IMG/VR virus record: IMGVR_UViG_3300049845_000287
Span: 1 to 56,798 of that record
Source: a virus
Taxonomy: Duplodnaviria; Caudoviricetes
Strand: one strand, 5' to 3'
DNA: 56,798 bases
The position numbers and the translations under genes are program-made. Positions 30,343-55,602 of this stretch are shown piece by piece (positions within the stretch are counted from its first letter, which is position 1; every line of letters begins with the position of its first letter). Below the pieces are notes generated by a model. That model was not told the origin of the DNA. It saw only the letters and a program-made list of their open reading frames with translations, and made no database searches.

Positions 30343-30675
30343 CTAGAAGGTCTCGCCATCGACGACGACGAGGTCGCCATCGCTGGTCTCGACGAACTCG
30401 GTGCCGGCAACAATCTGGAACTCGTTGCCGACCCAACGCGCGGCGAACGCCTCGCCAGTGCGGAGAGCGCTGCGATCGGCAGACGCCATCATGTTGATGG
30501 TCTGCACGCTGCCATCCGCGACCAGGAAGGACAGCTCGAACATCGGACGACCGTCCTTGGTGGCGGTGTCCTTCCAGCCGAGCAGGATGCCGACGACCTC
30601 TTGGGTGCGAGCGGCAATCTCGCCAGTCTGCAGTCCGAGCTCGGCTGCCAGCTTGGCATAGTCGGGAGCCTTCAT
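30343..30675 (-). CDS. early protein, paralog 2 (possible OB fold)
   Basis: GAGGAGG RBS, 110 aa, paralog of 29607-29942. Confidence 0.85.
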   Translation of the reverse strand: MKAPDYAKLAAELGLQTGEIAARTQEVVGILLGWKDTATKDGRPMFELSFLVADGSVQTINMMASADRSALRTGEAFAARWVGNEFQIVAGTEFVETSDGDLVVVDGETF

Positions 30676-33710: not shown

Positions 33711-34892
33711 ATGCACGCACCTGAGCCCCGGCATCTCAACGACTGGCTATGGAAGCCGTCCGTCGAGGAGTCCATCTGCAACAACCCGTTCCACGCCGTC
33801 ATGTGCAAGGTGCTCTCCGGCTACACCGCTTCCCCGATGGACCCGTTCTGGGAAGAGGACTCGCCGTTCACCAAGCTCGCCAAGCTGGTCAAGGCCGAAC
33901 TGATCCTGCCCGAGGGCGATGTCATCTATGTCCGCGAGCGCGACAACCTCATCCCGCTCGGCGAGGCCATCGGCCTGCTCGCGTACTACATGCACGTCGA
34001 CCGGCATGACGCGCGCAAGGCCGCCGACGTGCTGGAGACCAACTTCCAAGGCTACTTCCCCATCACGGGCGACAAGGTGTGGCGAGGCGGCATCTCGCTC
34101 GAGTACCCGAACACGACCGTCAAAGGCGGCCCACCCAACAGGGTGCTCATCGACCTGGCCACGATGGAGGCCGAGAAGCCCGGCATCGTCCCCGGCATCC
34201 CCGAGTTCGGTGTCCACACCGTCACGAGCGCCACGACCGATGTGCTGTGGAAGTTCTTCAACCTCATCAACACGGCGGTCGGCGAGGACCACTTCTTCGA
34301 GAAGGCGCTCATGTACCCGTTCAACCAGCGGATAAGGGAGAAGTCCCATGTACTGGTGGGCAAGGGGGGCAACGGGAAGTCGTTGTTCATGCGGATGGTG
34401 CAGCGTCTGTACGGCGACCGCGCCTACACTGATGCTCCTCAGCCCAACTTCAGAGGCCACGATCCGGCCGTCATCGCTTACAACTTCGTCGGCAAACGAG
34501 TGGTCACCTTCAACGACGTCGGCGACCCCAGCGAGGCGTTCCTCGAATGGCTCAAGCGCATGATCACCGGCAACCTCGAGGTCAAGACCCCGAGCGGCGC
34601 CTGGCTCTCTGTCCCCTGCGTGACCAACTTCATGCTCGAGACGAACCACGCTCCGGCAGTGCTCGACATCGAGGCCCACGCGAGGCGCTACGTCATCCGC
34701 ACCTTCGACGAGGGCTTCAAGCTCAACGAGCACATGACCGAGGTGGAGTTGGACATGATAGGAGAACGCGGTAGTATCACCGCAGGTGACCTCGTCAACT
34801 ACCTGATGCACGTCAAGCCCGACATCACGGACTGGAAGACGTTCACCGCACCTGTCGTACAGGAGATGCCGGTTGCCGCAGCCGACTACTGA
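33711..34892 (+). CDS. superfamily 3 (D5/P4-type) DNA helicase
   Basis: Walker A LVGKGGNGKS, Walker B VVTFND, LKRMITG, motif C FMLETNH, ARRY. Confidence 0.88.
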   Translation: MHAPEPRHLNDWLWKPSVEESICNNPFHAVMCKVLSGYTASPMDPFWEEDSPFTKLAKLVKAELILPEGDVIYVRERDNLIPLGEAIGLLAYYMHVDRHDARKAADVLETNFQGYFPITGDKVWRGGISLEYPNTTVKGGPPNRVLIDLATMEAEKPGIVPGIPEFGVHTVTSATTDVLWKFFNLINTAVGEDHFFEKALMYPFNQRIREKSHVLVGKGGNGKSLFMRMVQRLYGDRAYTDAPQPNFRGHDPAVIAYNFVGKRVVTFNDVGDPSEAFLEWLKRMITGNLEVKTPSGAWLSVPCVTNFMLETNHAPAVLDIEAHARRYVIRTFDEGFKLNEHMTEVELDMIGERGSITAGDLVNYLMHVKPDITDWKTFTAPVVQEMPVAAADY

Positions 34893-35531: not shown

Positions 35532-36812
35532 TTGGCGAAGCAGATCATCCGGGTCGAACAGTCGGACTCAGACAAGCTCTTCCGCGAGAAGGTGAACTCC
35601 AACTTCCTCCGCGTCGCCGAGGAATCCGCCGCTCCCACGCATACCCACGAGCACACTCATGACGACCCGGACCTCTCGGGCTACTGCACGATGGAGCTCT
35701 ACACCGAGCTCGAGGCGCGCGTCCGTGTCCTCGAGAGCCTGATCGGCGGCGGAGGCCAGTTCACCAAAGAAGGCGGCGTCGGCGTCTGGATGGTCAACGG
35801 CACCGGCGCGGCCACCGTCCGCGGTGATGTCGTCGCGCTCGACCCGGACAGCGATAACAAGTTCGTCCTGTGCAGCGGCGGCCTCGACCCCATCGGTGTC
35901 GTCTATTCGAGGAACAAGGACATCGACGCGCTGTGCCTCATCATCGTCGCCGGCCGCGCGCAGGTGCGTCTCGAGGACGACCTGGTCGCGTATCCGGGCG
36001 ACCTGCTCCTGGCGAGCGACACCGTCGACGGGCGCGCCGAGCCCGCCACGCTTGCCGGGATCTCCGACGCCGACCACTGGCGCGAGGTCGGCCATGTGAG
36101 CATGGCGACCGGCGGTGGCGAGGTCAGCACCGTGGTAGAGCACACCTTCACCGATGGCGGCTCCCCTCCCTACGCGGTGCTCGAGACGCCGGAGGCCACC
36201 TGGGAGCCGATCGGCGCCGAGCCGACCGCGGACTGGCGGTGGCAGGTCGACGTGAGCTACCTGTTGCAGCTTGATGAGCTCATCTCGGATGTCGAAAGGT
36301 TCACCGTCATCCACTCGATCAACGCAGGAACGCTCCCTGCTCCATGGCAGGCAGGTATCACCGACCTCGTGTCCTGGGTCTTCTACGGGCAGATCTACGA
36401 CCCGGCCTCTCCCAGCGTGGCGGTCAAGGGCGATCGCAGCCTCGGCAACCGTGCCATCGCGGGAGGCACGCTCGGTGCGGACGACTGGCATTACGAGATC
36501 GAGCGCATCCCCGGCACCAGCGCGAACTGGCGCTACCGGGTCAGCTATGACGCGGGCTCGACCTGGAGCGGATGGTCGAACCTCTCGACCGGCACCTACA
36601 CCGACGGGTCCTACAAGTGCTCGATGAAGTTCAGGTGTGCGGGGACCGTCGACGTGAACAACACCGGTGGCGCGTCTGCCGCTCCGACATGGTTCCCCGA
36701 TTCGAGCATCTCGGTATCGGAGATCACGGTCTCAGGTACGACCGTCGAGACTCTTCCCGAGCCTGATACCGAATACCCCGGCCTGACGTGGGCCGTCGTC
36801 CACTTCAACTAG
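35532..36812 (+). CDS. virion decoration/fibre protein (DUF2190-like cement fold with an inserted domain)
   Basis: TTG start with GGGAGGT RBS; RGDVV, PIGVV, AGRAQV, GDLL.AS motifs; C-terminal VVHFN. Confidence 0.6.
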   Translation: MAKQIIRVEQSDSDKLFREKVNSNFLRVAEESAAPTHTHEHTHDDPDLSGYCTMELYTELEARVRVLESLIGGGGQFTKEGGVGVWMVNGTGAATVRGDVVALDPDSDNKFVLCSGGLDPIGVVYSRNKDIDALCLIIVAGRAQVRLEDDLVAYPGDLLLASDTVDGRAEPATLAGISDADHWREVGHVSMATGGGEVSTVVEHTFTDGGSPPYAVLETPEATWEPIGAEPTADWRWQVDVSYLLQLDELISDVERFTVIHSINAGTLPAPWQAGITDLVSWVFYGQIYDPASPSVAVKGDRSLGNRAIAGGTLGADDWHYEIERIPGTSANWRYRVSYDAGSTWSGWSNLSTGTYTDGSYKCSMKFRCAGTVDVNNTGGASAAPTWFPDSSISVSEITVSGTTVETLPEPDTEYPGLTWAVVHFN

Positions 36813-36817
36813 GAGTC

Positions 36818-38659
36818 ATGATGATCCATCCCGACAGATGGACTCCCACGGTCAAGAAGCGCGAGACCGCCTTCGGCGACTTCTCGACGCCGAACCTGTT
36901 CGACAAGGCCAAGAACAAGGCCGGCCAGATCGGGCGCAGCGTCAAGTCCAAGGTCGACAAGGTCGCCGAGCGCAAGGTGACGCCTTACATGCAGGGGCCG
37001 GTGAAGTACCGCAAGGGCGACGGGCAGCTCTCGACCAAGGAAGAGAATCTCGCTCTGCCGCATCCGACCCCGGCACACGCCGAGCAGGCGCAGGCCAATG
37101 AGCTCAAGACACGCCCCAAGGTGCGGACGAGCTACGCCGGGGATCCTCGGGCATACGGTGGCGGCCCCGAGACGCCCGCTATCAAGCGCGGACTGGCGCT
37201 CATCACCGGGCCGACCGGCCAGGACATGGGCTCGCTTATCAACCCGAAGCTTCTTGAAGAGGTCAAGGAGCAGGGCTTCCCGCCTCCCGCGGACCCGATG
37301 GACATGGACTTCGAGCCGACTCCGCAGCAAGAGCTCGTTGGACAGGCGTTGAGCGCGCCGATCATATCCACTCTCGAGGTCGGCGGTGACGCGCTCAACC
37401 GTCTCGGAGGAGGCAGGCGCAACGCCGCCGACAACCCGTACCGCGAGGACGACGACCCGGTCTATCGCTACGTCACCCCCGAGAACGAGGAGTTCACCTC
37501 GGCCGACCTGAAGCACTACTTCTCGATGGGCGACGGTGAACCGGTCACCGACGAGTTCCTGAACACGGCCCGCGCCTACAAGCCCGAGTTCTATACCCAC
37601 CACGTCCCCGGCGCGGAGCTTGCCTCGGACGGGAAGACCTGGGTGCGCTACACCCATCTCGCACTCGGAGACGAGAAGAACCCGGTCATCGTCCCTGTCG
37701 AGGACTTCGAGAACCGCACCTACCTCGGCCAGGGGATCAGCCCGGACTACATCGGCCCCGAGCTCGACGAAATCTGGCGCACCCAGATCAACGAGAACAA
37801 GTTCGGCACCGCCGTCCCGCGCGCCCCGCTCCAGGACCGCACGAACAAGTGGGCGTGGGAGCCCGGCTTCGACCCGAAAGACATCCCGTGGGACGAGCAG
37901 ATGGAGTGGTACACCGACCTCTCGCTCGGTTCCTCGCCCTACTATGTGCCCGGCGTGCGCTACGGCGCGGGCGCTGCGCGGGCGCTTCCTTATGCGCTTG
38001 GGTACGAGGGCGAGACCGGTATGGGCCAGGGAGTCGGGCTCGACAACGTGATGGGCATGGGGAACCTGTCCTACAACGACAAGGACCTCAATGTCGGCCA
38101 AGCGGTCGGCGGCACCGTCCAGCCGATGGTGGAAGCGTGGGCCGAGTACGGCCTGTCGGACACCGCGGTCGGCGGTGCCATGAAGCTCGCCAAGGTCATG
38201 CCGAAGGGGTTGCGCACCTCTCTGTCGAAGACCGCCGCTGCCCAGGCGTTCGGCCCGCTCGGCAGGACGCTGCCCGCGCAGGTGGTGGCCGGCGGCCTCA
38301 CAGAAGGGTTCGAGGAGATCCTCGGCGTCATCCCCGGCATGATCGCCCAGGACGGCCTTGGCAACCTCGGCCGTGACCGCAAGTGGAACGACAAGATGGA
38401 GCGGTGGGACTACGGCAAGGGTGACTTCTGGACACGGGCGGGCAACGTCGGCACCGCGATGGGCGAGGCGTTCGCATCAGGTGCGGCCATGGGCCTGCCG
38501 ATGTCGCTCGGTGGCGAGCTCCTCTCGCGCGCCAAGGGAGAAGGCACGACCGGCAAGAAGCCATACGTCGCACCGCCACAGATAGAAGCCGCACCCAGAG
38601 CGGACGGTCAGAGCCAAAGCGACCGTATCGCCGCGTTCCGTGATGAGAGGGCTCGCTGA
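36818..38659 (+). CDS. putative internal virion (ejection) protein
   Basis: 613 aa; C-terminal Gly/Ala-rich hydrophobic region with EGFEE motif typical of podovirus ejection proteins. Confidence 0.6.
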   Translation: MMIHPDRWTPTVKKRETAFGDFSTPNLFDKAKNKAGQIGRSVKSKVDKVAERKVTPYMQGPVKYRKGDGQLSTKEENLALPHPTPAHAEQAQANELKTRPKVRTSYAGDPRAYGGGPETPAIKRGLALITGPTGQDMGSLINPKLLEEVKEQGFPPPADPMDMDFEPTPQQELVGQALSAPIISTLEVGGDALNRLGGGRRNAADNPYREDDDPVYRYVTPENEEFTSADLKHYFSMGDGEPVTDEFLNTARAYKPEFYTHHVPGAELASDGKTWVRYTHLALGDEKNPVIVPVEDFENRTYLGQGISPDYIGPELDEIWRTQINENKFGTAVPRAPLQDRTNKWAWEPGFDPKDIPWDEQMEWYTDLSLGSSPYYVPGVRYGAGAARALPYALGYEGETGMGQGVGLDNVMGMGNLSYNDKDLNVGQAVGGTVQPMVEAWAEYGLSDTAVGGAMKLAKVMPKGLRTSLSKTAAAQAFGPLGRTLPAQVVAGGLTEGFEEILGVIPGMIAQDGLGNLGRDRKWNDKMERWDYGKGDFWTRAGNVGTAMGEAFASGAAMGLPMSLGGELLSRAKGEGTTGKKPYVAPPQIEAAPRADGQSQSDRIAAFRDERAR

Positions 38660-41600
38660 TGTCGAAGACCCATGGTGCCCCTACCGTCGGCCCCGGCGGG
38701 ACCAGAGGCGATGCCGAGCAGGGGCAACCGCGCATCAACATCCCGAAGATCGAGGTCGATGTACCGGCTATCGAGACCCCGGTCACCGAGGCACCGGCGG
38801 AGACCGGAGCACCGCAGGGTACACCCCAAGGCGCACCGAAGACCGTGGTGCCGCCTGCGGCCCCGGCGCCTGTCGCTCCTCCTGCGGGCCCTCGCCCCGG
38901 CACGGTCGAAGCGATGCAGGGGATCCCGAAGCCGGTCGAACAACGCGCCGAGCAGACCGTCCTTCCCGGCTTCGAACCACCTCCGGCACCCCTCGAAGGA
39001 CCGCCTCCGGTCAGCGCACCGCCGGCTCAGGGCCAGGCTCCGATCCCCGACCTGATGCAGACGCAGGCGGTCGAAGGCACGGGCGCTCCTGCGGCGCTGG
39101 GCGCAGAGCAGCTCGGGTCGCTCCAGACGCAATCGACCGTCGTGAAAAACGAAGAGAAGCTGCTCGAGCAGGGCGGCCTCGAGGCGACTTCCCCCGTGTC
39201 TCAAGCGCGTGTCCCGACCGTCGAGGAACTGACCGGTGGCGAAGACCTGTTCGCGGCCGAGCAGACCGACGTGATCGCGAATCGTGCGGTCGACATGGAG
39301 GATATGGTCCCGCCGACCAAGGCGACCAGGGCGAACCTGCCTGACCGCTCGTCGAAGGCCGTGCTCAAGGAGCAGCGCGAAGAGGCGACCGCCGGGTACG
39401 GCACCGACGAGACGGGAACGGCCGTCCGCGGCAAGCTCTCCGCAGGGTGGGACGTCAAGATCCACGAGATCTCGGTGTCCGCCGAGCAGCTCGTCGACGC
39501 ATGGCGGCATCAGACCTCCGGTCTGCGCGAGCTCATGACCGAGTACGGCTACGACCAGGAGCAGATGCTCGCCAACCGCGCGTACGCGATCTGGGCCGTG
39601 ACAGACCTGTTCACCAACAACGACATCGAGGCGCTGGCGATGAAGGCGCCGCTCGTCGACGAGGCGTCGGTGCATCGCCGCGTGGTCCGTATCAACAAGG
39701 GACGCGGCATCAAGATCAACCCCATCGTCTTCACGATGTGGAACGCCGACTTCGACGGCGACGACATGATCCTGTCCTTCGGCAGGGAGGCCATCCGTGA
39801 CGCCAAGAGCGCGATGGACTTCCTCATCGGCACGGACGGCGTGGGCAAGATCGACCCCGACTTCTTCGACATGGCTCCCTGGGGCGACGGGACCACCACG
39901 GTCTACGCGCACCTCAGAGAGCTGTTCGAGGGAGACCCCGACAACCCGCTCCTGCTCACCGAGGCCGAGCTCAAGGGGCTGGCGAGCGCCATCGAGCGCG
40001 GGTGGTCAAAGGACTCGAAGGTGCGCGCGGCTGGGTATCGGTCGCTCCTGCGCTGGTCGAGGCAGATCGGCGAGCGGTTCCCGGCCGGCCCCGGTCGTGA
40101 CGAGGCCGTCGCCAGGATACTGACCGACATCTACAACCAGAACAAAGACATCCGCATGCTCACCCTCGGGTTCACGGCGGGCTGGAACTACATCGCCCCC
40201 GCCGACCTCAACGGCGAGTACGGCGAGGAGTCCCAGTTCCCCGAGCTCGAGAGTGATTCGTCGACCCCGGCGAACATGAAGGACATGGAGCGGGCGCTCG
40301 GCACGCCGATCGGCTACGTCCCGGGCAAGAACATCCACTTCCGCGTGACCGCCAGCTTCCTCAAGGCGGCCCGCCAGGTCTCGTACTTCATGGGCATCAA
40401 GCCTCCGGGCGACACCTTCGAGGAGAAGGTCGCGCTCATGGCGAGCGGTATCGAGGCGTTCGACGAGGCCGAGCGCGGTGTCTCCGACTGGGCTCGCAGG
40501 CTCATCATCGAGTCTCTCGGCGGCTTCCCCGCAGACGGGCACCTCGACCCGAAGAAGTTCGACGCCTATATCAAGAAGTTCGTGAGGCGCTACAACTACA
40601 TCGCCTACACGGTGAACTCCGTGACGGCCACCTTCAACCTCGACGACACCATCTCACCGGCCGACCGGCAGAGCTACGTCAAGCCGATCCGCACGGCGAA
40701 CCAGATCGACATGAACCGCGACATCCGCAAGGAGTTCAAGAACGTCTTCGGCTCCTTCACGATGGGCAGGCTGTTCGGCAAGGAGTGCCCCAACGGCTGG
40801 GAGAACATCACGCTCGACGAGTTCGTCCACACCAACAGGGCCGATGCCACATCCCCGGCTGGCGCGAAGCTGCTCGGCCGCCCGTCGACCCCGCTCGACA
40901 CGCCGGCGCATCTCATCGGCCGTCTCGCCGACCTGCGCACCAGCTTCTCCAAGACCTACAACGACGAGTTCACCAAGTCGCTCAAGAAGCAGTTCAGCCC
41001 CGGCGGCGAGCTGCTCTTGCGCAAGGTCGGGATCCTGCGCAAGGAACAGCGGGTGGCCAAGAAGAACTCGGCACAGCTCGACGCCGACATGATCGTGCTG
41101 CTCGATGCCATGCGCTCGTTCTCCGTCGACATCTTCTACTTCCTCGGGTTCAACTCACCGGCCGATCTGGAGCGAAACCCGCTCGGCCAGAAGTTCCTGG
41201 GCGCGACCAACTACAACAAGCTCGGCGGCCTGATGTACGAGGCCGCCACCCGCTACCGGTTCGAGCCGGTCCAGCACGCAGAGAGGGAACTGCGCGCCGC
41301 GAAGAACGGCAAGGAGCGTCGGCACTGGGAGAGCGTCTTGCGCCACGAGCTCGGGGAGATCGCATCGAGCTCGGAGACCTGGGCTGTCATCGTGCATGAC
41401 TACGAGAACGGCGGGGACGTGCTCCCCCGCGTCCTGCTCTCCGACATGACCAAGACGCAGAAGGAAGCCGAGATCGTCAAGCTCGTCCACGAGAGCATCG
41501 TCGGACGACACGGCTACAACAAGGACGAGGTGGCCGCCGGGCTCATGGGCAACCCGAAGGGGCTCTACGCCCGCGACCGCTTCATCTCCGACTTCGGTCA

Positions 41601-44600
41601 CACGAACCTGATGAAGAACGTGAAGGCCGCATCAGACACCATCGACCGGTACGCCAAGCTCAACTGGACGACGATGGTGACCGACATCAAGAACGCCCGC
41701 GCAGGGGCGAAGCCCGACGAGATGAAGCAACTGCTCTCGCGCATCGCACGCGACCCCTCCATCCTCGTGCCTATCGAGAACTGGCAGATCGGCGACGCCG
41801 TCCTCTCGCTGATGGAGAAGTCCTACCCGTCCTCGGAGAAGGCGCAGCAGGAGCCAGAGGTCGCCTACATCTACTCGGCCATCAGCAACCTCATCAACGC
41901 TGGGACGTGGTCGGACCTCGTCGTCGGCGGTGACTTCGCCGTCGGCTCCATCTCCGCGATACGTCTCGCCCAGTCTCCGGGCATCCTGGCCAAGGCGATC
42001 TCCGACCCGAACTTCGCCATCCGCGTCTACGACGGGAAGGGCTCGACCATCCTGTCGCAGTACGCCCTGTTCAAGAAGAACAACCCGTCCGACAAGGAGA
42101 TCTGGGACTGGCTCGAGAACAACCCGCGCATGGCGATGGCGCTGCGCCTCACCACCATGGGCAACAGCGTCAACAAGAAGACCGGGTTCTCCTACACCAA
42201 CGCGACCAAGACGCTCGAGAAGTCGATGTACGAGCTGCGCAAGCCCGAGTCGGTCCCGATGCGCTGCCTCAAGAAGCTCGCCGACCATCCCGGCTTCTAT
42301 GCGATGGTCGCGCTCTCCGTCCCCATGGAGGGCCAGCGCAGGGTGCAGCTGAGGAAGACGGCAGGTGACAACGTCTGGAACGTCATCGAGCTCATCCGCT
42401 CGTTCAACAAGACCGGCATGACCGGTGAGAAGTTCGTCGAGGAGCTCGTCAAGCGCAACGGGCTTCCCGAGGGCATCACGCTCGACGAGGTCAAGAGGCT
42501 CTACAAGGAGGGCCAGAAGGCGACGACCTCGATCGCCGAGGCCGACCAGTACGACGTGCGCGACACGCGCGAGTACCAGATAGGCCAGCTCATGGCGCAC
42601 CTCGCGGCCAACCTCGAGGAGTACGCGGGTATCGTCGACACCATCCCCGGTGGCTCGCTCGGATTCCCTCCGCGCAAGATCGCACTCGACCTGTTCCAGT
42701 TCAGCGACGAGACCACGCTGCGGTCGTACTTCGACGCGGTGCAGGTCATGAGCGGCGCCAAGACGGAGGTCTCGACCTCGGTCAACGCCGCAGAGTCGAA
42801 GAAGAACGCCGCGCTGATGTTCCTCGCCCAGTACGTCCCGAAGGCGTGCGGCGCGCCCGAGCCTGTCCGGATGAAGACCGGGCAGCTCGCAGCCGTGTGG
42901 GAAGACCACATCGGCGACCAGGTGTTCTTCCCGCCGCTCACCGAGGACGGCAGCCCGGAGTGGTACTACATCAACGAGGCGAACCTCGAGTTCATCACCG
43001 AGTACGCGAACGAGAACTACGGCGGCATGGTCATGATCGAGGACACCGCGGCCTGCGTCGACCCGCTCTGCCGGTGTGCCCGGCACGCCAAGGCCGACCC
43101 GTCCACGAACTTCACGGGGCTGCAGACCACCGAGCTCGGTAGGTTCCTCACTGTGGTGCGTACGTTCTCGGGAGAGACGCTCAACCTCAAGATCAAGACG
43201 ACCGGCGACGACGAGACCGACTCCATCACCAAGAACAAGGTCTTCGAGATCCTCGACGTCGGTCTCGAGCGCAGGCTCAACGACGAGTGGGTCAAGCTCG
43301 GCATGAACCCGGCGCCCGAGACGCTGCTGGTCCTGCGCACGATGGTCGCCGAGAAGATGAAGGAGACCTACAAGGAGATGGGCTACGGCGAGGAGCTCAC
43401 GCTCGACGACTTCACCGCGCTCGCTCATTTCATGGTGCGCCCCTACGAGGCCGCCGACGGGCTGATGAAGATCAAGCTGCTCTCCATCGGCCAGCTCAAC
43501 GCCATCTGCCACGAGGCGGCGACCGCGTACGTCAACGAGCTCGGCGACCAGATCACCCACCAGGGTGTGCTCGACAGGATGGTCGAGGCGCTCTCCGACG
43601 ACAGCATCGTCGCCTCCGAGATGGACATCAACGACGTGACCGCGCTGGTCGACGTCGCGCCCAAGATGTTCATGACGCCGAGGCTGAAGTACCAGCGCAT
43701 GTCGAGCACGGGGCGCAACCTCGAGCTCGCCAAGCAGATCGTCAAGGAGAACCCCGACGTCCGTGCCCTGTCGGAGGAGGCGATGGACGACTACGAGTCC
43801 ATCCTGCTCAAGAAGGACAAGCGCGGCCTGGTCGACAGTTGGAAGAACCTCAACCTGTTCGGCGAGAAGTACATGAACAAGCGCTACAAGCTGCGCCTCA
43901 TCGGCATCTTCACCGACAAGGGTTCCATGTCCGAGGAGTTCATCGGCCCCCGCAACTGCTGGCTGCTCAAGCGCGGCGGGGCGTCGGTCGACACGATCGC
44001 CAGGGCGTACCGGCTCGGTATCACGGTGCTCATCGAGAACCCGTCCGAGGTCGACTGGAAAGAGGTCAGTCGCATGACCGGAGGGGAGATCGACGAGAGG
44101 CAACTCGTCGACAAGGGCGGCAACCGCTGGCTCATCCCGATGTTCGACATCCGGCTCAACGGACAGAACCGCTCCGAGAACCACGGCGCGTTCGACGCGG
44201 GCGTGGTCCACGTCCTGCCCGAGAGCGTCTACTTCTACTTCGAGAGCATCCTGAACAAGGACGCGGCGGCTGACGCCGAGTTCATCCCGACCAAGTGGTT
44301 CTCGGACAACATCACGTTCAAGCGCACCGGCACCTACCGGCTGCCCGCCAAAGCGGCGTTCGCCAACCTGATATGGGAGCAGCGTCCCCGTGGCGGCCCC
44401 GGTGTGGTCAACATCGACATCGCCACGCGCCAGCAGATCGAGGACTACTTCGTCGACGGGTACGTCTCCGACACGGCGGACGACGCGCCACCCGAGCTCG
44501 ACAAGAGCATCCCGCTCGATCTGGGCAAGGCCAACACCGAGGAGGGGAGCCGTGAGAACAACCGGTTCCTCGAGGACGTGAAGGTCTACCTGTCCCGCTA

Positions 44601-45756
44601 CCACGAGACCAATGAGAAGGGGATGCTCCCGAGCGCCAAGCCCGACGAGATCATCGGGTGGCTGCGAGCCGAGATCAACGGAGAGGTGAGGTTCCACCCC
44701 ATCCGCATGTTCGAGCTCGGTCACGGTGCGGGAGCGCCGACGGACATGGAGATCGACTGGGAGAAGACCAAGTTCGACCAGGGCACCCAGGAGCTCCTCG
44801 TGGAGTGGAGGAGCGAGGGCTCGATGCTCGGCCGCATGTTCAAGATATTCGAGGGCGGCTTCGCGTCGAACAAGTTCATGGCGCGCACGGACGCCATCGA
44901 CGACATGGAGCTGCAGAACGGGGTCAAGATCGCCGGCTACATCGCACGGCAGTCCACCTCCGGCCGCCGGTTGCTCATGCGCCGCCAGCAGAAGATGTCG
45001 ACGCTGATGTATATGGCGCGGCTCTCCCCGTACGGCTACAACTTCGCGGAGCGAGACGACACGTTCCCGAACGACCCGGAGATCAAGGAAGCCCTGCTCT
45101 CCGGTGAGATGGAGATCGGTGAATGGGACAAGATCCTGAAGGTCGGCGACATCCAGTTCTACCCGGAGGCCGGCGGTGAGCGCAACGCCTTCCTCAACGA
45201 CATGTGCCGCAAGGCGGTGCGCTACAAGGTCAACCCGACCGTCGTGCTCGCCTCGCGTTACGGCGGCGAGGGCGGGACGCCATCGAACCTGTGGTTCAAC
45301 TTCCAGGTCCTGTTCGGGCGCGGGCCCGGCTACCAGCGCAACCTCATGCAGTGGCTCAACTTCATGATGCCGACGCTGTGCCCGCCCGGCCTCGAGGATG
45401 GCAAGAAGCCGAACACGCTGTTCAACGCCAACCTCCAGGTCTACGTCCCTGCCAGCCACACGATGAAGACCTCGGTGCTGGGCAGGAAGCGCGGCGACAC
45501 GGTCACCGTCGGAGAGTGGGTCGACCTGTACGGTGGGTTCCACTTCCTCGACGAGCACTACGACGGGCACTCGAACTCGGGGAGCACGGTCAAGTCCGAC
45601 GGGATCCCCGGACTCAACACGCTCATGGCAGGCGGCAAGGAACTCTCGTCCAAGCAACTCAAGGCATACTTCGGCTGGGGCAACATCGGGCACGCGGGCA
45701 ACTGGTCCGTGGCACCGTCCGGGATGATCTCTCCTGACCAAGAGCCGATCGACTAG
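38659..45756 (+). CDS. giant virion-module protein with RNA polymerase beta'-like catalytic elements (putative virion RNAP)
   Basis: MKAP...IKINP...WNADFDGDDM (N362-D368); bridge-helix-like aa 1357-1391; Zn site C1397/C1466/C1473/H1476; trigger-helix-like aa 1493-1514. Confidence 0.8.
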   Translation: MSKTHGAPTVGPGGTRGDAEQGQPRINIPKIEVDVPAIETPVTEAPAETGAPQGTPQGAPKTVVPPAAPAPVAPPAGPRPGTVEAMQGIPKPVEQRAEQTVLPGFEPPPAPLEGPPPVSAPPAQGQAPIPDLMQTQAVEGTGAPAALGAEQLGSLQTQSTVVKNEEKLLEQGGLEATSPVSQARVPTVEELTGGEDLFAAEQTDVIANRAVDMEDMVPPTKATRANLPDRSSKAVLKEQREEATAGYGTDETGTAVRGKLSAGWDVKIHEISVSAEQLVDAWRHQTSGLRELMTEYGYDQEQMLANRAYAIWAVTDLFTNNDIEALAMKAPLVDEASVHRRVVRINKGRGIKINPIVFTMWNADFDGDDMILSFGREAIRDAKSAMDFLIGTDGVGKIDPDFFDMAPWGDGTTTVYAHLRELFEGDPDNPLLLTEAELKGLASAIERGWSKDSKVRAAGYRSLLRWSRQIGERFPAGPGRDEAVARILTDIYNQNKDIRMLTLGFTAGWNYIAPADLNGEYGEESQFPELESDSSTPANMKDMERALGTPIGYVPGKNIHFRVTASFLKAARQVSYFMGIKPPGDTFEEKVALMASGIEAFDEAERGVSDWARRLIIESLGGFPADGHLDPKKFDAYIKKFVRRYNYIAYTVNSVTATFNLDDTISPADRQSYVKPIRTANQIDMNRDIRKEFKNVFGSFTMGRLFGKECPNGWENITLDEFVHTNRADATSPAGAKLLGRPSTPLDTPAHLIGRLADLRTSFSKTYNDEFTKSLKKQFSPGGELLLRKVGILRKEQRVAKKNSAQLDADMIVLLDAMRSFSVDIFYFLGFNSPADLERNPLGQKFLGATNYNKLGGLMYEAATRYRFEPVQHAERELRAAKNGKERRHWESVLRHELGEIASSSETWAVIVHDYENGGDVLPRVLLSDMTKTQKEAEIVKLVHESIVGRHGYNKDEVAAGLMGNPKGLYARDRFISDFGHTNLMKNVKAASDTIDRYAKLNWTTMVTDIKNARAGAKPDEMKQLLSRIARDPSILVPIENWQIGDAVLSLMEKSYPSSEKAQQEPEVAYIYSAISNLINAGTWSDLVVGGDFAVGSISAIRLAQSPGILAKAISDPNFAIRVYDGKGSTILSQYALFKKNNPSDKEIWDWLENNPRMAMALRLTTMGNSVNKKTGFSYTNATKTLEKSMYELRKPESVPMRCLKKLADHPGFYAMVALSVPMEGQRRVQLRKTAGDNVWNVIELIRSFNKTGMTGEKFVEELVKRNGLPEGITLDEVKRLYKEGQKATTSIAEADQYDVRDTREYQIGQLMAHLAANLEEYAGIVDTIPGGSLGFPPRKIALDLFQFSDETTLRSYFDAVQVMSGAKTEVSTSVNAAESKKNAALMFLAQYVPKACGAPEPVRMKTGQLAAVWEDHIGDQVFFPPLTEDGSPEWYYINEANLEFITEYANENYGGMVMIEDTAACVDPLCRCARHAKADPSTNFTGLQTTELGRFLTVVRTFSGETLNLKIKTTGDDETDSITKNKVFEILDVGLERRLNDEWVKLGMNPAPETLLVLRTMVAEKMKETYKEMGYGEELTLDDFTALAHFMVRPYEAADGLMKIKLLSIGQLNAICHEAATAYVNELGDQITHQGVLDRMVEALSDDSIVASEMDINDVTALVDVAPKMFMTPRLKYQRMSSTGRNLELAKQIVKENPDVRALSEEAMDDYESILLKKDKRGLVDSWKNLNLFGEKYMNKRYKLRLIGIFTDKGSMSEEFIGPRNCWLLKRGGASVDTIARAYRLGITVLIENPSEVDWKEVSRMTGGEIDERQLVDKGGNRWLIPMFDIRLNGQNRSENHGAFDAGVVHVLPESVYFYFESILNKDAAADAEFIPTKWFSDNITFKRTGTYRLPAKAAFANLIWEQRPRGGPGVVNIDIATRQQIEDYFVDGYVSDTADDAPPELDKSIPLDLGKANTEEGSRENNRFLEDVKVYLSRYHETNEKGMLPSAKPDEIIGWLRAEINGEVRFHPIRMFELGHGAGAPTDMEIDWEKTKFDQGTQELLVEWRSEGSMLGRMFKIFEGGFASNKFMARTDAIDDMELQNGVKIAGYIARQSTSGRRLLMRRQQKMSTLMYMARLSPYGYNFAERDDTFPNDPEIKEALLSGEMEIGEWDKILKVGDIQFYPEAGGERNAFLNDMCRKAVRYKVNPTVVLASRYGGEGGTPSNLWFNFQVLFGRGPGYQRNLMQWLNFMMPTLCPPGLEDGKKPNTLFNANLQVYVPASHTMKTSVLGRKRGDTVTVGEWVDLYGGFHFLDEHYDGHSNSGSTVKSDGIPGLNTLMAGGKELSSKQLKAYFGWGNIGHAGNWSVAPSGMISPDQEPID

Positions 45757-45765
45757 GGACACGAC

Positions 45766-48700
45766 ATGGGCAGAACCAGAACAGGCAGGACCACCCCAGG
45801 TGCGGGTACTGGCGGGACCAGAGGCGACGTCCGTGGTGGACAGCCGAACGTCAACGCCCCCGACGTCGAAGTGCCGGACATAGCGCCGGACGCGAAGCCA
45901 CAGGAGAACGTCAACAAGGACCTCGAGAAGAAGATCCCTGAGGTCAGGCCACCCGTCGTACCGAAGCCGGTAGCCAAGCCCGTCATCACACCTCAGAAGA
46001 CGGTGCTCGATGAGCGGCTCGAAGCCGATCGGCAGCGCACGACGCAGAGCGCATCAGGGCTCGAGCGGCCTTTGTCGGAGAGGATCCCCGAGGTCAACGA
46101 CCCGGCGAAGGCGCGCATATACTCTGGAACCTACGCGGCTCCGCACGCCGATACCGCCCGCGGTGCAGCGGCGGGGACGACCGTGGTCGAGTCCGAGAGC
46201 GGCCCGGTCACCATCGACGAGCAGGGCACCATCGTCGACTCCGACGAGGACTTCCTCGACACGCTGGTCGGGCGCGAGGGCAAGTGGACGGCCGAGGAGA
46301 CTCAGCGCGTCATGTCCATGGAGCCCGAGGTCAAGGAGAAGTGGAAGGCCAAGCGGCTCAAGGAGGGCATGCCCAGCAAGCCTGCTGCTCCGAAGAAGCC
46401 TGCCGTCAAGGTCGAGCCCAAGGTGGCACCGACAAACAAGGCACCGGACACCTCTAGCGTGGATGAGCAGGCCGTCTCACCCGAGGTGGAGCAACAGTAC
46501 GTCGAGGCGTTCGCTCTGCTGGACGCGATGCTCGCCGACCCCTCCATCATCGACAAGGCCATGAAGGACGCCTTCGAGCAGATCGGCTCACCGGCCGACC
46601 CGGTCAAGGTGCTCGTCTGGGCGTTCGGACGCTTCCTGGCTGACGAGCGCAGCGAGGGCTCGCTGCAGATCCTGAAGAACGCCATCAGGACCACCAAGCA
46701 GGTCTACGGTGATGCGCTCGCCACGAAGGTCGCCAACTCCGTGGTCAAACGTCTGCGCCCGGACTACGAGCCCGGAGCCCAGGCCGCCCCACAGGTGGCG
46801 CCTGAGCAGGCCGAGGAGGGGGCGGAAGCCCCTGTCGATGCTGCCGAGGAAGAGCAGATCATCCGCGACGAGAGCTACAAGGAGATCCCGCTTCCGTTCG
46901 ATTTGGCCGCGATAGCCAACGTGGACCCGGACGCACAGCGTACTCCGGTGGCTCTGAACAGCGCCGGTAACGAGCGCGTCTTCACCTCGTGGCGCAGGAG
47001 CCTCGAGGCGGCGCTCGTCAACGCGAGCCCGAGCGAGGAGACCCATACCGCCAAGGGCAAGACGTCCAAGACCGGCAAGCCCCGCGGTGTGACGGCTGTC
47101 CGCATGGACGCCGAGGCGTTCGCCGATGCCAACCCCGAGCTCGCCCTGGAGATCCTCGAAGGGCGGGTCTACACGGCGCTCGACGCAGGCAAGATCAAGG
47201 TCGCGCAGGCACACCTCGCCGCGCTCAACGCATGGGTCGCTCACTACGAGGCAAAGCCCGACGTCGATGACGTCTTCTACGACGAGACCTGGGACAAGGC
47301 CAAGGAGCTTCCGAGGCGTCCTGCCGACATCGACATGGAAGCCGCGCGCGCCATGGGCCAGGGGTCCGGTTCGCGTGCAGCCATCGAGCGTGGACGCTCG
47401 CGGGTCAACTTCGCCGTACGCGATGCGACGAAGTTCCTCATCCAGCAGGGCTACGACGCCGTCGACGACCGTGTGTACTCGGCACGGTTGGCCCTCGGAC
47501 TCGATGTCGATCCTGAGAGCGCGCCGGCCGTGCGCGCCGCCAGAGTCGAGGCCGAGGCCGAGAACCAGTTCGTCGACGACATCAACAACGCGCTCGAGAA
47601 CGCCCAGTTCGAGATGGACATGGACGAGACCATCAGCGCGCTCCAGGTCGAGCTGGACACGGTGACCGACGCCGAGCGCAAGCAACTCGAGAACGACGTC
47701 GAGAAGATCCTCCAGATCAACGAGGAGCAGAAGAAGGCTCCGACCGTCCAGCGACCCAAGAGCGCGATCCGCCAGCGCATCGAAGAGACCAAGGCGTTCA
47801 TCAAGCAGAACCTGTTCGACGGCCTGTTCCCGCTCACCGGCGACCAGATGGTCGAGGAGGACTACGACGAAGAGGACGAGAACGGCGAGATCGTCACCAA
47901 GACCAGGATGGTGCCCCGGCACTCCGACGAGGTCATGGCTGAGATCAACAAGACGCTGCACTTCTTCGGCATCAAGCCGGGGCGTGAGGCGACCAAGATG
48001 CTGTTCCGTGCCTTCCAGCTCTACCGCGGCTTCTCCATCGACCGCGACGGCAGGATGTTCAAGCAATCCAAGGAGAAGGTGAAGATCTCAGACGATGTCT
48101 TCATCCAGTTCCTCGGCGAGATCCGCAACAACGTGCGGATGTATAACAACCCCTTCGCCTACACGAACCCGCACTACAAGCTCGGTACGACCGAGTGTTA
48201 CCCGATGCCGATCTCCAAGGCGCTTGCCGCCTGGTTCACCTCGGGCACGAGCGGCGAGCTCTCCATCTCAGCGGAAGACCTCATCACGCACAGCGTCAAG
48301 GAGTACAACGAGAAGGTCGAGCCGCGCCTCAAGAAGCTCGCATCGTTCGCCCAGCGCGAGGTGCTGTTCGACATGCGTGACGTCGTGGCCGACCAGCTCA
48401 AGCGTGACGACTTGCCCGGCCGCTCTCCTGACGAGCGCATGTCGGCCACCGAGATGCTCAACGCCGACTCGGAATACGCCAAGCTGTTCAATGACGAGGA
48501 GGCCCTCGTCGCTGCCATGGTCGAGCGGCAGGAGCGCCAGTTCCGCGCCATGACCCGCGTCGAGAAGCATAAGAAGCGCGCTGAGGTCAAAGACTCCGAG
48601 GACGCCGGGGAGAACGCCGACGAATACTGGTACGAGGTCGCGGCGCCCAACGCCCAGAGCGCGGCGCGCACCGTCGCCAACATCGGGCGCATCATGGGCG

Positions 48701-51393
48701 TCATCGGCAACCCGTTCATCGCGGCGACCGGTATCGCCGAGAAGACGACGGGCGTCATCTACCAGTCGGCAGGCACCTGGGCCTTGCGCCAGTTCATGGG
48801 CGGGGAGCAGCAGATCACGGAGAACGGCAAGCAGATAGTCGCCGAGGACCACAACCTCCACGCCGTCGAGGAGATGCTCAAGATCATCGCCTCGGAAGGC
48901 TTCGACGGCCTGATAGACCTGGCTTCCCGTGGTGTCCTGTTCGCCAAGGAGACCAAGATCAAGAACGAGAAGAAGCCGTTGGCCACCGCCAGGCAGAGGA
49001 CGGGCCAGTGGGTCGAGGTCGCCATGGCCTGGTCGACGGGTGACGTGGTGTTCAAGAAGAAGACGGCTCGCATCCTGCTCGACCACCTCATCTACCAGTT
49101 CGAGCGCAGCGCGAAGCTCGACCCGGACGCCGTCACCTACACCGCGGTCGAGCTCGAGTCCATGCTGGAGAGCGACCCCAACGGGTTCTGGAGCATGGTC
49201 GCCACGACCTCGGAGGGCAGGCAGGCGCTCCTGTTCGCAGGCAACACGTCGCTGGCGGGCGTGGACCCGCTCACCAACCTGTTGCGGCTCGGTACGCGCA
49301 ACTCGCTCGTCGACGCGTCGCTCGGATTCATCATCGGCTGGTATCTGAAGTTCGGCATGCGGTCGGCGATCAGGATGATCCCGTACTCGAACACCGCCAT
49401 CTTTCTGGCGCAGCGCGGGCTCATCAACCCGGCGCTCAGCATCGGCGTGTCCGGTGACACGCTGGCCGATACCAACGAGTTCATGCTCGCGGGCAACGAG
49501 TCGTTCGCGCGAGGCATGGCGCAGAACATCATCGTCGACACCATGAGGTTCGGCACACAGGCGGCCACCTTCATGTTCTGCATGGGGCTCGTCACCCTGC
49601 TCGGTGGGGTCGCACCTCCCGACGACGACGACAAGCGCCACCTGTGGTTCGAGTGGAAGATCGGCGGCAAGGACGGCGTGGCGGTCAAGGAGGCGTGGTA
49701 CTTCCAGGAGCTCCTCGGCTTCTCGATGCCACTCGTCATCGCCGTGCTGGCCGGCGCCCAGACAGGTGACACCGACGAGGCCATGTTCATCCTCACGAAC
49801 GGCGTGTGGGAGAAGCTCGAGCAGAACCCGTGGACGAACGCGGCCGACCTGATCGACCTCACGAACAACTTCGACAGAGACCTCGTCGAAGCGCAGGCGC
49901 GCGCAGAGGGTTACGAGGGAGCCGACCCGACGGGCGAGCAGTACGCCTACTCGCAGATCATGATGTGGATGACGAGGCGGACCTATCAGACCTTCGAGCC
50001 CGCCATCCTGCGGCAAGCCTACAACGAGCACGGGCTGTTCACCGGAACGGCTGACCTGGCCCGATCGCCGAACATGGTCTTCACGGGTGACCCGAACGAC
50101 CCGACCGACATGACGACGTGGATCGACTCGCAGAAGCGGCGCGCGAACAGGCCGTCGAGGGCGACCGCGCTCATCGCCAACATACTGGCCGGCTACTACT
50201 GGCAGAGCCACGACCCGTCGCAGCCGCCGCTCACCGGCTACATGCGCGACCAGATGCCGCTCGTGGAGAACGTCGACTCGACGAACCAGATGTGGATCGA
50301 CGCGCTGTCGGTCAAAGACCCGGCAGGCGGGCCGAACATCCCGAGGGAGAAGTGGACGCCCGAGCAGGAGCAGCGCATCGTCAACGAGGTCAAGTCGCTC
50401 ATCGCCCGGTTCCCGAACCCGGTGGACATGGCGGCCCAGGGCATCGTCATACCCTACGACGCACGAGCCGCCACCGTGGACGCGTTCAACAAGGAGTGGG
50501 GCGAGATCCGCTCCCGTCACTACAAGCGTGTCGCCGACGGTGACTTCGCCTCGCTGCCCGGCGGATGGCCCTCGGCCGCCGACAAGAAGCGCAAGAACAA
50601 GGCGTACGAGAACCACCTCAAGGAGCAGGCCAAGATCGACGCGAAGATCGACATCCTGTTCAGCGACGAGATCCCGTACTCGGCCCTGAAGTACAACCGC
50701 TGGGAGACGAACTACCGCACGATGTTCGTGTGGAAGGATGGTCCGAAGAAGGGCAAGCCTGCCCACCCGCTCGAGTACCGGATGCACTCCGAGGACGTCG
50801 AGATCATCAGGTACGCCTCGGGCGACCACAAGTCGAGCTTCTTCCCGTGGCTGACCGTGGACGACCAGGGCAAGGACACCTACGACGCGCAGACGCAGGT
50901 CGGCTGGCAGAACGCCAACACCGACATGGACTTCGTGCGCGAGTCCACGATGGACCGCACCATCGAGACCGGCGTCAACAAGGGCAAGAACGCCTGGGAG
51001 GTGCTCTCCGGCGAGGGCGGCGCCTACTCCAAGGCGATGCAGGGGGCGGGCATGGGCGCGCTCATGCCGATGCTGCTCACCGGCCAGCGCGCCTTGCTGC
51101 CCAAGCGCATGCCGTTCGACAAGCTCGATCGCAAGGACTTCCCGAAGCCCGAGGTGGAGAAGGCGGTCAAGCCTGACGACTCAGGCAAGACCGTGTGGCG
51201 TCGCGGCTGGGGCGGTGGCTGGGGGTCGAACGAGTACACGCCGGTCTTCTACTCGCACCCGGCGTACAGCCTCAACGCCGACAAGCCCGCCGGGCTGTAC
51301 CGGAAGAACCCGAACTACACCAGGTTCGACTATCTTCGTCCGAGAGTTTCCACCAAGGGTAGCCGTGAAGCCTACCGCCGAGAGGACTTCTGA
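45766..51393 (+). CDS. giant internal virion / ejection protein
   Basis: 1875 aa, disordered N-terminus, helical core, several membrane-like segments near aa 1180-1330, directly upstream of portal. Confidence 0.65.
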   Translation: MGRTRTGRTTPGAGTGGTRGDVRGGQPNVNAPDVEVPDIAPDAKPQENVNKDLEKKIPEVRPPVVPKPVAKPVITPQKTVLDERLEADRQRTTQSASGLERPLSERIPEVNDPAKARIYSGTYAAPHADTARGAAAGTTVVESESGPVTIDEQGTIVDSDEDFLDTLVGREGKWTAEETQRVMSMEPEVKEKWKAKRLKEGMPSKPAAPKKPAVKVEPKVAPTNKAPDTSSVDEQAVSPEVEQQYVEAFALLDAMLADPSIIDKAMKDAFEQIGSPADPVKVLVWAFGRFLADERSEGSLQILKNAIRTTKQVYGDALATKVANSVVKRLRPDYEPGAQAAPQVAPEQAEEGAEAPVDAAEEEQIIRDESYKEIPLPFDLAAIANVDPDAQRTPVALNSAGNERVFTSWRRSLEAALVNASPSEETHTAKGKTSKTGKPRGVTAVRMDAEAFADANPELALEILEGRVYTALDAGKIKVAQAHLAALNAWVAHYEAKPDVDDVFYDETWDKAKELPRRPADIDMEAARAMGQGSGSRAAIERGRSRVNFAVRDATKFLIQQGYDAVDDRVYSARLALGLDVDPESAPAVRAARVEAEAENQFVDDINNALENAQFEMDMDETISALQVELDTVTDAERKQLENDVEKILQINEEQKKAPTVQRPKSAIRQRIEETKAFIKQNLFDGLFPLTGDQMVEEDYDEEDENGEIVTKTRMVPRHSDEVMAEINKTLHFFGIKPGREATKMLFRAFQLYRGFSIDRDGRMFKQSKEKVKISDDVFIQFLGEIRNNVRMYNNPFAYTNPHYKLGTTECYPMPISKALAAWFTSGTSGELSISAEDLITHSVKEYNEKVEPRLKKLASFAQREVLFDMRDVVADQLKRDDLPGRSPDERMSATEMLNADSEYAKLFNDEEALVAAMVERQERQFRAMTRVEKHKKRAEVKDSEDAGENADEYWYEVAAPNAQSAARTVANIGRIMGVIGNPFIAATGIAEKTTGVIYQSAGTWALRQFMGGEQQITENGKQIVAEDHNLHAVEEMLKIIASEGFDGLIDLASRGVLFAKETKIKNEKKPLATARQRTGQWVEVAMAWSTGDVVFKKKTARILLDHLIYQFERSAKLDPDAVTYTAVELESMLESDPNGFWSMVATTSEGRQALLFAGNTSLAGVDPLTNLLRLGTRNSLVDASLGFIIGWYLKFGMRSAIRMIPYSNTAIFLAQRGLINPALSIGVSGDTLADTNEFMLAGNESFARGMAQNIIVDTMRFGTQAATFMFCMGLVTLLGGVAPPDDDDKRHLWFEWKIGGKDGVAVKEAWYFQELLGFSMPLVIAVLAGAQTGDTDEAMFILTNGVWEKLEQNPWTNAADLIDLTNNFDRDLVEAQARAEGYEGADPTGEQYAYSQIMMWMTRRTYQTFEPAILRQAYNEHGLFTGTADLARSPNMVFTGDPNDPTDMTTWIDSQKRRANRPSRATALIANILAGYYWQSHDPSQPPLTGYMRDQMPLVENVDSTNQMWIDALSVKDPAGGPNIPREKWTPEQEQRIVNEVKSLIARFPNPVDMAAQGIVIPYDARAATVDAFNKEWGEIRSRHYKRVADGDFASLPGGWPSAADKKRKNKAYENHLKEQAKIDAKIDILFSDEIPYSALKYNRWETNYRTMFVWKDGPKKGKPAHPLEYRMHSEDVEIIRYASGDHKSSFFPWLTVDDQGKDTYDAQTQVGWQNANTDMDFVRESTMDRTIETGVNKGKNAWEVLSGEGGAYSKAMQGAGMGALMPMLLTGQRALLPKRMPFDKLDRKDFPKPEVEKAVKPDDSGKTVWRRGWGGGWGSNEYTPVFYSHPAYSLNADKPAGLYRKNPNYTRFDYLRPRVSTKGSREAYRREDF

Positions 51394-55065: not shown

Positions 55066-55602
55066 GTGCTGAACCGTCCCGCCGATATATGGGATGTCAC
55101 CTGGGGCATCCTCACCGGAGAGCTCTATACTCGCCGACACGAGTGGATCACACCACGCGTCGTCAGCCCGGCACTCGATGTCGGGTGCGGACAGGGCTAC
55201 CAAGGGACGCTCATCGCGCTCGAAGGCCACGACATCAGGGGCATGGACCTGCACCCTGGGCTGGTGGCGCTGTCGAGCAGGATGGCCGAGGCCAACGGTG
55301 TGACCTTCCCCGTGTCGGTCGGCAACGTCTACCAGATCGACTATCCCGACACCTCCTTCGAGACCATCGTCTGCACCGAGGTGTTGGAGCACCTCGACGA
55401 CCCAGGGTGGGCACTGAAGGAGATGGCCCGCGTCGGCAAGCGCCTGTTGCTCTCGACACCGGGATTCGGTGCGATGCGCATACCGGGCCACATCCAGGAC
55501 TTCACCGAGGAGGACCTCGCAGAGCTGGTCTCCGTCGACTGGGTCATCGTCGAGCATGTCCAGGATCACCCCTGGCAGTACGTCGAGGCGGTGCGCAAGT
55601 GA
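55066..55602 (+). CDS. class I SAM-dependent methyltransferase
   Basis: LDVGCGQG, GMDL, EVLEHL and LLSTP motifs; AAGGAG RBS. Confidence 0.9.
   Translation: MLNRPADIWDVTWGILTGELYTRRHEWITPRVVSPALDVGCGQGYQGTLIALEGHDIRGMDLHPGLVALSSRMAEANGVTFPVSVGNVYQIDYPDTSFETIVCTEVLEHLDDPGWALKEMARVGKRLLLSTPGFGAMRIPGHIQDFTEEDLAELVSVDWVIVEHVQDHPWQYVEAVRK

Follow-up and report, generated by a model that had tools for sequence, protein, structure and literature searches.

Single-chain relatives of cellular RNA polymerase have been used to probe the minimal needs of a two-barrel enzyme and the origin of viral polymerases. In published accounts, QDE-1, phi14:2 gp66 and P23-45 gp96/gp64 are laid out with barrel B before barrel A and with the bridge helix soon after barrel A (PMC10770324; bioRxiv 10.1101/2020.03.07.982082). 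In gp66 the catalytic motif stands at 1361 and the helix at 1529 (bioRxiv 10.1101/2020.03.07.982082), and the enzymes of this kind are given a DFDID or DYDGD motif and a grouping apart from the cellular enzymes (PMC10770324). YonO of prophage SPbeta is described as a protein of about 100 kDa with no detectable trigger-loop homology (PMC5467207). Here we describe a candidate single-chain two-barrel RNA polymerase of 2365 amino acids (P0001), encoded on the plus strand at 38659-45756 of the IMG/VR virus record IMGVR_UViG_3300049845_000287 (Caudoviricetes; 56,798 nt, rated complete by CheckV; this whole stretch is called the window below) and recognised from the translation of its open reading frame (ORF) and from 33 full-length metagenome homologues. 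We propose, as the likely reading of our observations, that residues 1351-1529 (42709-43245) belong to a beta' module of bacterial type, much diverged, and supply its bridge helix, its second zinc site and its trigger loop; the module is placed within a chain that runs from beta' to beta.

Near its N-terminus, the predicted double-psi beta-barrel (DPBB) at residues 249-380 (39403-39798, plus strand) is a genuine beta' DPBB of the beta'/Rpb1 lineage. Pfam PF00623 (RNA_pol_Rpb1_2) matches residues 313-374 with 27.8 bits, above its cut-off of 25.3; PDB beta' chains are found by the family profile at E 6e-8 across 150 positions; and hhalign sets residues 249-380 on beta' residues 333-465 with a probability of 95.7 and E 8.7e-9, the beta' reference here and below being 48 bacterial sequences that were fetched and aligned. 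The catalytic Mg-binding motif NADFDGD occupies residues 362-368 (39742-39762, plus strand), and K329, P331, R341, A363, D364, D366, G367 and D368 are invariant in all 34 of the 34 aligned family sequences. Ahead of the barrel lie about 250 residues (38659-39408, plus strand) that are rich in Pro, Ala, Gly and Glu and poorly conserved, the family consensus there being nearly all x; as translated, this stretch is of low complexity and too short and simple for a second barrel. Behind the barrel, residues 385-1345 (39811-42693, plus strand; about 950 residues) gave no detectable likeness to beta' or beta in hhalign (best P 0.16-0.8) and no Pfam or PHROG family.

Beyond this region comes the block in which the initial annotation had seen a second set of beta' landmarks. 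The strings on which it had relied, NADFDGD among them, were all found in the ORF where it had placed them: SYFDAV...KACG at residues 1356-1398 (42724-42852), CVDPLCRCARH at 1466-1476 (43054-43086), AKADP at 1477-1481 and ELGRFLTVVRTFSGETLNLK at 1492-1511 (43132-43191). The spacing that it had reported, 69 residues from C1397 to C1466 followed by C-x6-C-x2-H, is correct, as is a distance of about 990 residues from the catalytic motif to the helix, which we place at 988-994. It had further supposed that this distance reflects an insertion of 650-700 residues; the extra length, about 680 residues, is real, and its being one single insertion found no support. The histidine of the trigger loop, which it had failed to see, is indeed missing: the region was recovered from 117 of 121 stored family proteins, of which 95 have Lys and 18 have Thr at position 1514, and position 1504 is Gly, Ser or Ala. 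Origin of the block from a cellular-type beta', which the annotation had inferred, we also consider probable, mainly on fold, collinearity and conservation.

The predicted structure of the block agrees with this origin. AlphaFold2 (AF2) models of residues 1300-2365 and 1330-1745, with a mean predicted local distance difference test score (pLDDT) of 72.2 and 72.9 respectively, both contain a long helix at 1351-1382 that continues to 1389 (32-39 residues, pLDDT 53-66), then an alpha/beta domain spanning 1403-1460 (pLDDT 80-94) and the Cys cluster, which lies in a loop; two helices close the series, 1492-1506 and 1522-1529, and between them runs a loop of low confidence (1506-1517). When the 1330-1745 model was compared by Foldseek with 350,542 PDB chains, all 48 of the 48 matches listed were RNA polymerase entries, the best two having E 1.3e-3 and probabilities of 0.99-1.00, over 137-499 aligned columns, a likeness that is to be read at the level of the chain. 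The chains listed include bacterial chains D, J or N, nine of which were named beta' in other searches of this analysis, as well as plastid chains of 912-1216 residues that differ from the chains named beta, and, as match 9, chain 9rjs_D of the PhiKZ non-virion polymerase. Judging by length, the plastid and PhiKZ matches are C-terminal-half beta' subunits; the subunit identity of two further listed chains, 9a4w_B and 9m7y_B, is unverified, and no chain named beta occurs among the 48 listed. A beta'-type fold for the module from bridge helix to trigger loop is thus supported by models of moderate confidence. Other comparisons added little: against viral predicted structures the same model matched nothing below 1e-3 and gave low probabilities, a few jumbo-phage beta'-like proteins standing at ranks 16, 24 and 27; a look-up of residues 1340-1560 in the ESM Atlas was uninformative (best score 0.75); and a complex prediction of residues 245-470 and 1940-2200 with 1340-1560 as partner, run without controls, scored 0.00, which is evidence neither way.

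Both the helix and the hairpin are well conserved in the family. The bridge-helix-like element, taken from the models, hhalign and conservation as residues 1351-1382 and 1384-1389 (42709-42825, plus strand), keeps K1368, T1369, T1373 and G1377 in 102-111 of the 117 members (T1369 in 110, T1373 in 108, G1377 in 111), and hhalign sets its AKTxVSTxxxG on the beta' bridge helix, whose conserved T, T and G are thereby matched to T1369, T1373 and G1377. The trigger-loop-like hairpin (helix 1492-1506, loop 1506-1517, helix 1522-1529; 43132-43245, plus strand), identified from the models, conservation and an alignment in two registers, keeps R1501, E1506, N1509, L1510, K1511 and K1525 in 109-116 of 117. 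In the first register, which is gapped and was returned by hhalign, VVRTFS falls on TMRTFH; in the second, which is gapless and follows from the 36-residue offset from the Cys cluster, L1510, K1511 and residue 1514 fall on the Met, Arg and His of LTMRTFH. We would favour the gapless register, because N1509, L1510 and K1511 are near-invariant (109-110 of 117). The histidine is absent in either register, residue 1514 of the present phage being Thr.

Sequence comparison of the block with beta' has to be weighed more carefully. With a profile of the 34 aligned sequences, the best local hhalign alignment of residues 1330-1560 to beta' is collinear (P 0.045), and in its extended form residues 1349-1533 lie on beta' 770-997 with C1397, C1466, C1473 and H1476 on the four beta' cysteines. 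A profile of the 41 zinc-type members, defined as those that have both C1466 and C1473, places residues 1343-1532 on beta' 764-968 with the same four ligands on the same four cysteines, at a score of 29.4-30.7 and P 0.006-0.009; its reversed query scores 18.3, and none of 200 column shuffles reaches 30.7 (maximum 27.5). In a test by windows, no other window, whether of 52 from the family or of 77 from beta'/beta, reaches the observed 23.2. The global mode of hhalign was non-discriminating, the observed 5.4 being equalled or exceeded in 7 of 50 windows from the family and in 15 of 79 from beta'/beta. Profile-profile alignment had been put forward in the initial annotation as a check on its proposal; the outcome was favourable in collinearity and in the placing of four ligands on the zinc cysteines of beta', and unfavourable in its P-values, which at 0.0059-0.06 are poor.

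A number of results speak against descent of the block from beta', and beyond the barrel the sequence evidence for it is weak. In the 2365-residue protein Pfam at E<=10 gives only PF00623 and neither of the Rpb1 domain 4/5 families (PF05000, PF04998); PF04998 has no match in the whole record, while 14 of 14 control genomes do match; and hmmsearch of PDB with the region profile of the near homologue group returns no beta' at E<=10. In the controls for the 34-sequence profile, the observed score is reached by 3 of 100 column shuffles and surpassed by the reversed query (28.3 vs 25.4), and in the window test beta-barrel windows come near the beta' score (21.7 vs 23.2). Profiles made from the non-zinc members, whether the 26 in the 34-sequence alignment or all 76, fail to align to the beta' block, so that most of the sequence signal comes from the Cys cluster and the residues flanking it. 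On the side of structure, no Foldseek match of the region model lies below E 1e-3, the root-mean-square deviations are 9-20 Å, the long helix and the loop have a pLDDT of about 40-66, and AF2 may be reproducing a learned beta' fold. Finally, the zinc site is kept in about a third of the family, and a search of 1.84 billion representatives with the region profile brought no cellular beta'-type protein among its 96 matches at E<=1e-3.

Taken together, such results could be explained if the block were a helical and zinc domain peculiar to the family and unrelated by descent to the bridge helix or trigger loop of beta', its likeness being due to chance, to long helices and to predictions pulled towards a learned polymerase fold. 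The silence of searches at the level of HMMER, the hhalign P of 0.006-0.06, the reversed 34-sequence query that beats the real score, the large rmsd behind a best Foldseek E of 1.3e-3 and the failure of the non-zinc profiles all favour this explanation. We nevertheless consider it quite improbable, given that the listed Foldseek matches drawn from the 350,542 chains are without exception RNA polymerase entries and none is a chain named beta, that a genuine beta' barrel lies upstream, collinear with the alignment, that no shuffle of the larger profile reaches its score, and that the residues invariant in the family stand at would-be contact positions of the trigger loop.

The zinc site raises a separate question, that of its age within the family. 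The protein has 10 cysteines in 2365 residues, four of which (1397, 1466, 1471 and 1473) stand within one 77-residue stretch, and a C-x6-C-x2-[CH] motif arises in 12 of 20000 shuffles of the whole protein. C1397 (42847-42849, plus strand), the proposed first ligand, is aligned to the lone Cys that follows the bridge helix in beta' and is Cys in 40 of the 41 zinc-type members; it is followed by the small alpha/beta domain of residues 1403-1460 (42865-43038, plus strand; pLDDT about 80-94) and by C1466, C1473 and H1476 (43054-43086, plus strand), the proposed ligands two to four, which are aligned to C-x6-C-x2-C of beta' and conserved. In the eight nearest homologues all four are invariant. An extra Cys, C1471, lies inside the x6; it is present in six of these eight, and at this position the zinc-type members have 12 different residues or a gap. 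In bacterial beta', C-x6-C-x2-C is found in 47 of 48 sequences, begins exactly 36 residues before GEPGTQ in all 47 and is most often preceded by the lone Cys at 74 residues; GEPGTQ is absent from the phage module. The phage C-x68-C-x6-C-x2-H, aligned ligand for ligand with the second zinc site of beta', is a putative metal site. To our knowledge this second site is a feature of bacterial beta' that is absent from archaeal and eukaryotic Rpb1, and if this is right the site would point to a bacterial source for the phage module.

Across the family the cluster occurs in 41 of the 117 members, as C/C/C/H in 39, C/C/C/C in one and G/C/C/H in one, and 76 are without both a 10-residue insert and all four ligands. 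This distribution leaves room for a reading in which the helix and hairpin derive from beta' and the CCCH site is a later and convergent gain, by a 10-residue insert and one Cys, in one subfamily. On distribution alone loss and gain are equally open, because the family cannot be rooted with the present data. The later gain is nonetheless unlikely, since an alignment with few gaps sets all four ligands on the four of beta', the x6 and x2 spacings are identical and the long spacing is 69 where the mode in beta' is 74, a Cys stands in fourth place in one member, as it does in beta', and the hhalign signal is strongest exactly over the zinc segment. An inherited zinc site, retained in one subfamily, is the reading that we carry forward.

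The remainder of the chain folds in prediction like the other large subunit. Foldseek with the 1300-2365 model found, among the 50 matches listed, 49 beta/Rpb2-type chains and one beta' chain (8sy5_J), with a best E of 2.1e-5, 277-815 aligned columns and 55 matches at E<=1e-3, and a beta (Rpb2)-like module, beta-rich from about residue 1745, is placed on this ground at 43891-45753 (plus strand), its start being approximate. The sequence support for it is weak (hhalign P 0.03-0.06), with no Pfam Rpb2 match in the 2365-residue protein. As a candidate counterpart of the lysine motif RHGNKGV of beta we identify K2062...GGANK2072GM (44842-44880, plus strand; this is the family consensus, the window reading FASNKFM), in which K2062, K2072 and M2074 are invariant and both lysines lie in predicted strands, and hhalign of residues 2068-2154 against beta sets ggANKgM on RHGNKGV at P 0.063 only. 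Residues 1573-1670 (43375-43668 of the window) show a weak hhalign likeness to beta residues 456-572 (P 0.03), and given this match the beta-like part could begin ahead of the beta-rich region. The models thus support a beta/Rpb2-like fold for residues 1300-2365 and the presence of both large subunits in one chain.

Within this arrangement the bridge-helix segment itself has to be distinguished from a beta motif. By eye, SGAKTxVSTGVEG has the G/K/G/G spacing of the beta-type barrel motif GDKxxxRHGxKG (G-x-K-x5-G-x2-G fits), which would make the block part of the beta-like module, and in the window test the beta windows around RHGNKG score next best at 21.1-21.7 against 23.2. This assignment is extremely unlikely, as the region-only model matches no chain named beta, the zinc-type profile compared with beta gives P 0.34, the segment is predicted to be helical and not strand, and K2062...GGANK2072GM is the better candidate, lying in predicted strands of the beta-folding part. 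Residues 1365-1377 were therefore rejected as the beta lysine motif on the predicted helix, on Foldseek and on the better candidate at K2062/K2072. With the barrel at residues 249-380 and a beta-like C-terminus, the order of the chain becomes beta' barrel, region of about 950 residues, bridge helix and trigger loop, beta. This order is reversed relative to the solved single-chain two-barrel polymerases QDE-1, gp66 and P23-45 gp96/gp64 as these are described, and the order of the known type (barrel B, barrel A, close bridge helix) is not found in the 2365-residue protein.

From these parts a mode of action may be sketched by analogy with the multisubunit RNA polymerases. The enzyme is probably an active DNA-dependent RNA polymerase, because the Mg triad, the K-x-P pair and the two lysines are invariant. 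D364, D366 and D368 would hold the catalytic Mg, the long helix would span the cleft beside the active site and take part in translocation, and the hairpin at 1492-1529 would fold over the incoming nucleoside triphosphate. L1510 and K1511 would act as the Met and Arg of beta', with Lys (95 of 117) or, in the present phage, Thr at the place of the catalytic His. In the zinc-type subfamily, to which the present phage belongs, C1397, C1466, C1473 and H1476 would bind one Zn, and this would staple the small domain between helix and hairpin.

The relatives of the protein are known from metagenomes. A word-indexed search returned 33 full-length homologues of 2219-2790 residues, all metagenomic and without informative protein names, which fall in the alignment into two groups, one near (P0002-P0008, 31-62% identity) and one far (20-23%). 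The 96 proteins found with the near-group profile of residues 1345-1535 all belong to the family, being giants of 2164-4850 residues or shorter proteins that may be fragments of such giants, and the ten that were looked up are without names; P0107, with 4850 residues, is among the homologues. In the far group, P0015, P0023, P0030 and P0034 include proteins with Pfam PF08719, and in one case also PF08010, within the giant protein, and one homologue of the PF08719 type is labelled 'ribA/ribD-fused uncharacterized protein' by its source; because some far-group homologues carry these domains, the polymerase can evidently be fused to further enzymatic domains. Searches elsewhere returned little: tblastn of the whole protein against 50,697 phage records gave no match, PHROGs gave two weak matches to families without assigned function, the C-terminal 415 residues were not found in 401 searched genomes from the phylum of one fetched locus, and the whole protein compared with four genomes gave one weak match only, in the barrel region at residues 307-384, inside an open frame of 1448 residues.

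We tentatively propose, with slightly less than even confidence in the whole, that these proteins make up a family of phage RNA polymerases, not described before and known only from metagenomes (at least 96 clusters at 50% identity), in which bacterial-type beta' and beta were joined in reverse order in a chain of about 260 kDa and the bridge-helix module was moved about 950 residues from the barrel by new domains. The zinc site, surviving in one subfamily, would mark an origin from bacteria after the last universal common ancestor, as opposed to one from an ancient single-chain lineage, and the enzyme would transcribe phage genes independently of the host polymerase, perhaps being injected as a protein of the virion. 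Such delivery is no more than a guess, made because the gene adjoins other giant genes and two highly conserved downstream genes. If the proposal is true, the enzyme would free a 57 kb phage from the host polymerase for transcription. With more than 90 diverse members, and with a gene neighbourhood that is conserved in phage genomes of 45-57 kb, the family lends itself to comparative and biochemical study as soon as a host has been found or the protein expressed.

This neighbourhood is best seen from four related IMG/VR contigs (45-54 kb), which keep the order of primase-like gene, variable stretch, polymerase gene and genes for proteins of about 1850, 661 and 511 residues, followed by a homologue of window positions 159-803. 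In the window the primase-like gene is at 33711-34889, and a 623-residue ORF at 36788-38659, which ends on the first base of the polymerase ATG, matches no family and is without a homologue in the four contigs, which vary over this stretch. Directly 3' of the polymerase gene is an ORF of 1875 residues (45766-51393) in which no known domain was found; it is followed by the genes for the 661-residue protein (51393-53378; 60-62% identical in the four contigs) and the 511-residue protein (53455-54990; 71-74%), the best-conserved genes of the polymerase-gene block. Elsewhere the window encodes a large terminase (12911-14470, minus strand), an endolysin (11918-12661), a tail-fibre protein (5004-6395) and a ParB-like protein. 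Beside the tail-fibre gene, a 991-residue ORF (8237-11212) that abounds in Gly-rich repeats, diverged and 33-101 nt long (families D2, D3, D5 and D7), is probably a fibre or spike protein, and in a minus-strand block two 300-nt stretches (29607-29906 and 30343-30642; 77% identity, 736 nt apart) look like a local gene duplication. The last 126 bases (56673-56798) are identical to bases 17-142, an assembly overlap by which the genome, either circular or with terminal redundancy, comes to about 56,656 bp, so that the open ORF at 55089-56798 runs on past base 142. Repeated promoter-like motifs were sought in the window, and only coding repeats and this terminal overlap were found.

Among known systems, the block may first be compared with RpoC. 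It shares with RpoC the order of helix, lone Cys, about 70 residues, C-x6-C-x2-ligand and hairpin, the retained T-x3-T-x3-G, and a genuine beta' barrel with NADFDGD upstream of the module. It differs from RpoC in that about 990 residues separate the module from the catalytic motif ahead of it, where 39 bacterial beta' have 290-339 (in 10-residue bins), in that the fourth ligand is His, in its lack of GEPGTQ, of the trigger-loop His and of a Pfam Rpb1_4/5 match, in its fusion to a downstream beta-like module, and in a zinc site found in only 41 of 117 members. Natural beta::beta' fusions (RpoBC) likewise hold both large subunits in one polypeptide; RpoBC, however, runs beta then beta' and is otherwise ordinary and cellular, whereas the phage protein runs beta' then beta and is mostly unrecognisable in sequence. 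Two of 120 fetched rpoC loci (L098 and L110) have NADFDGD at residue 1546 or 1680 of one open frame, a position that fits a candidate beta-then-beta' fusion when judged on motif position alone. Corynebacterium glutamicum NCgl1702 (2169 residues) is described with the order beta::beta', and is set apart from the present protein by that description only.

Among phage and other single-chain enzymes, the phi14:2 gp66 virion RNA polymerase (PDB 6VR4), QDE-1 and P23-45 gp96/gp64 are likewise giant or single-chain two-barrel proteins with bridge helix and trigger loop, and the present gene, like those of phi14:2 gp66 and P23-45, sits among large genes without assigned function. In distinction from these enzymes, the present N-terminal barrel passes the Pfam cut-off for the cellular Rpb1 domain 2, and none of them appears among the fold or sequence search matches of the phage protein. 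YonO is similarly a single-chain phage polymerase related to the multisubunit enzymes, but the present family, at about 260 kDa, keeps a trigger-loop-like hairpin, whereas YonO is reported to lack trigger-loop homology. The jumbo phages PhiKZ and AR9 also have diverged phage copies of bacterial beta and beta', although there as several polypeptides in genomes above 200 kb and here as one polypeptide in a genome of 56.7 kb. No description of a beta'-then-beta single-chain phage polymerase was found in the literature, the supplementary family lists of PMC10770324 and of the gp66 paper, which lay outside the search, being places that may include the family. Taken as a whole, the architecture appears to be a novel form of two-barrel polymerase, and to the single-chain relatives already described the family would add a reversed subunit order, a recognisable bacterial-type zinc site and a trigger loop without its histidine.

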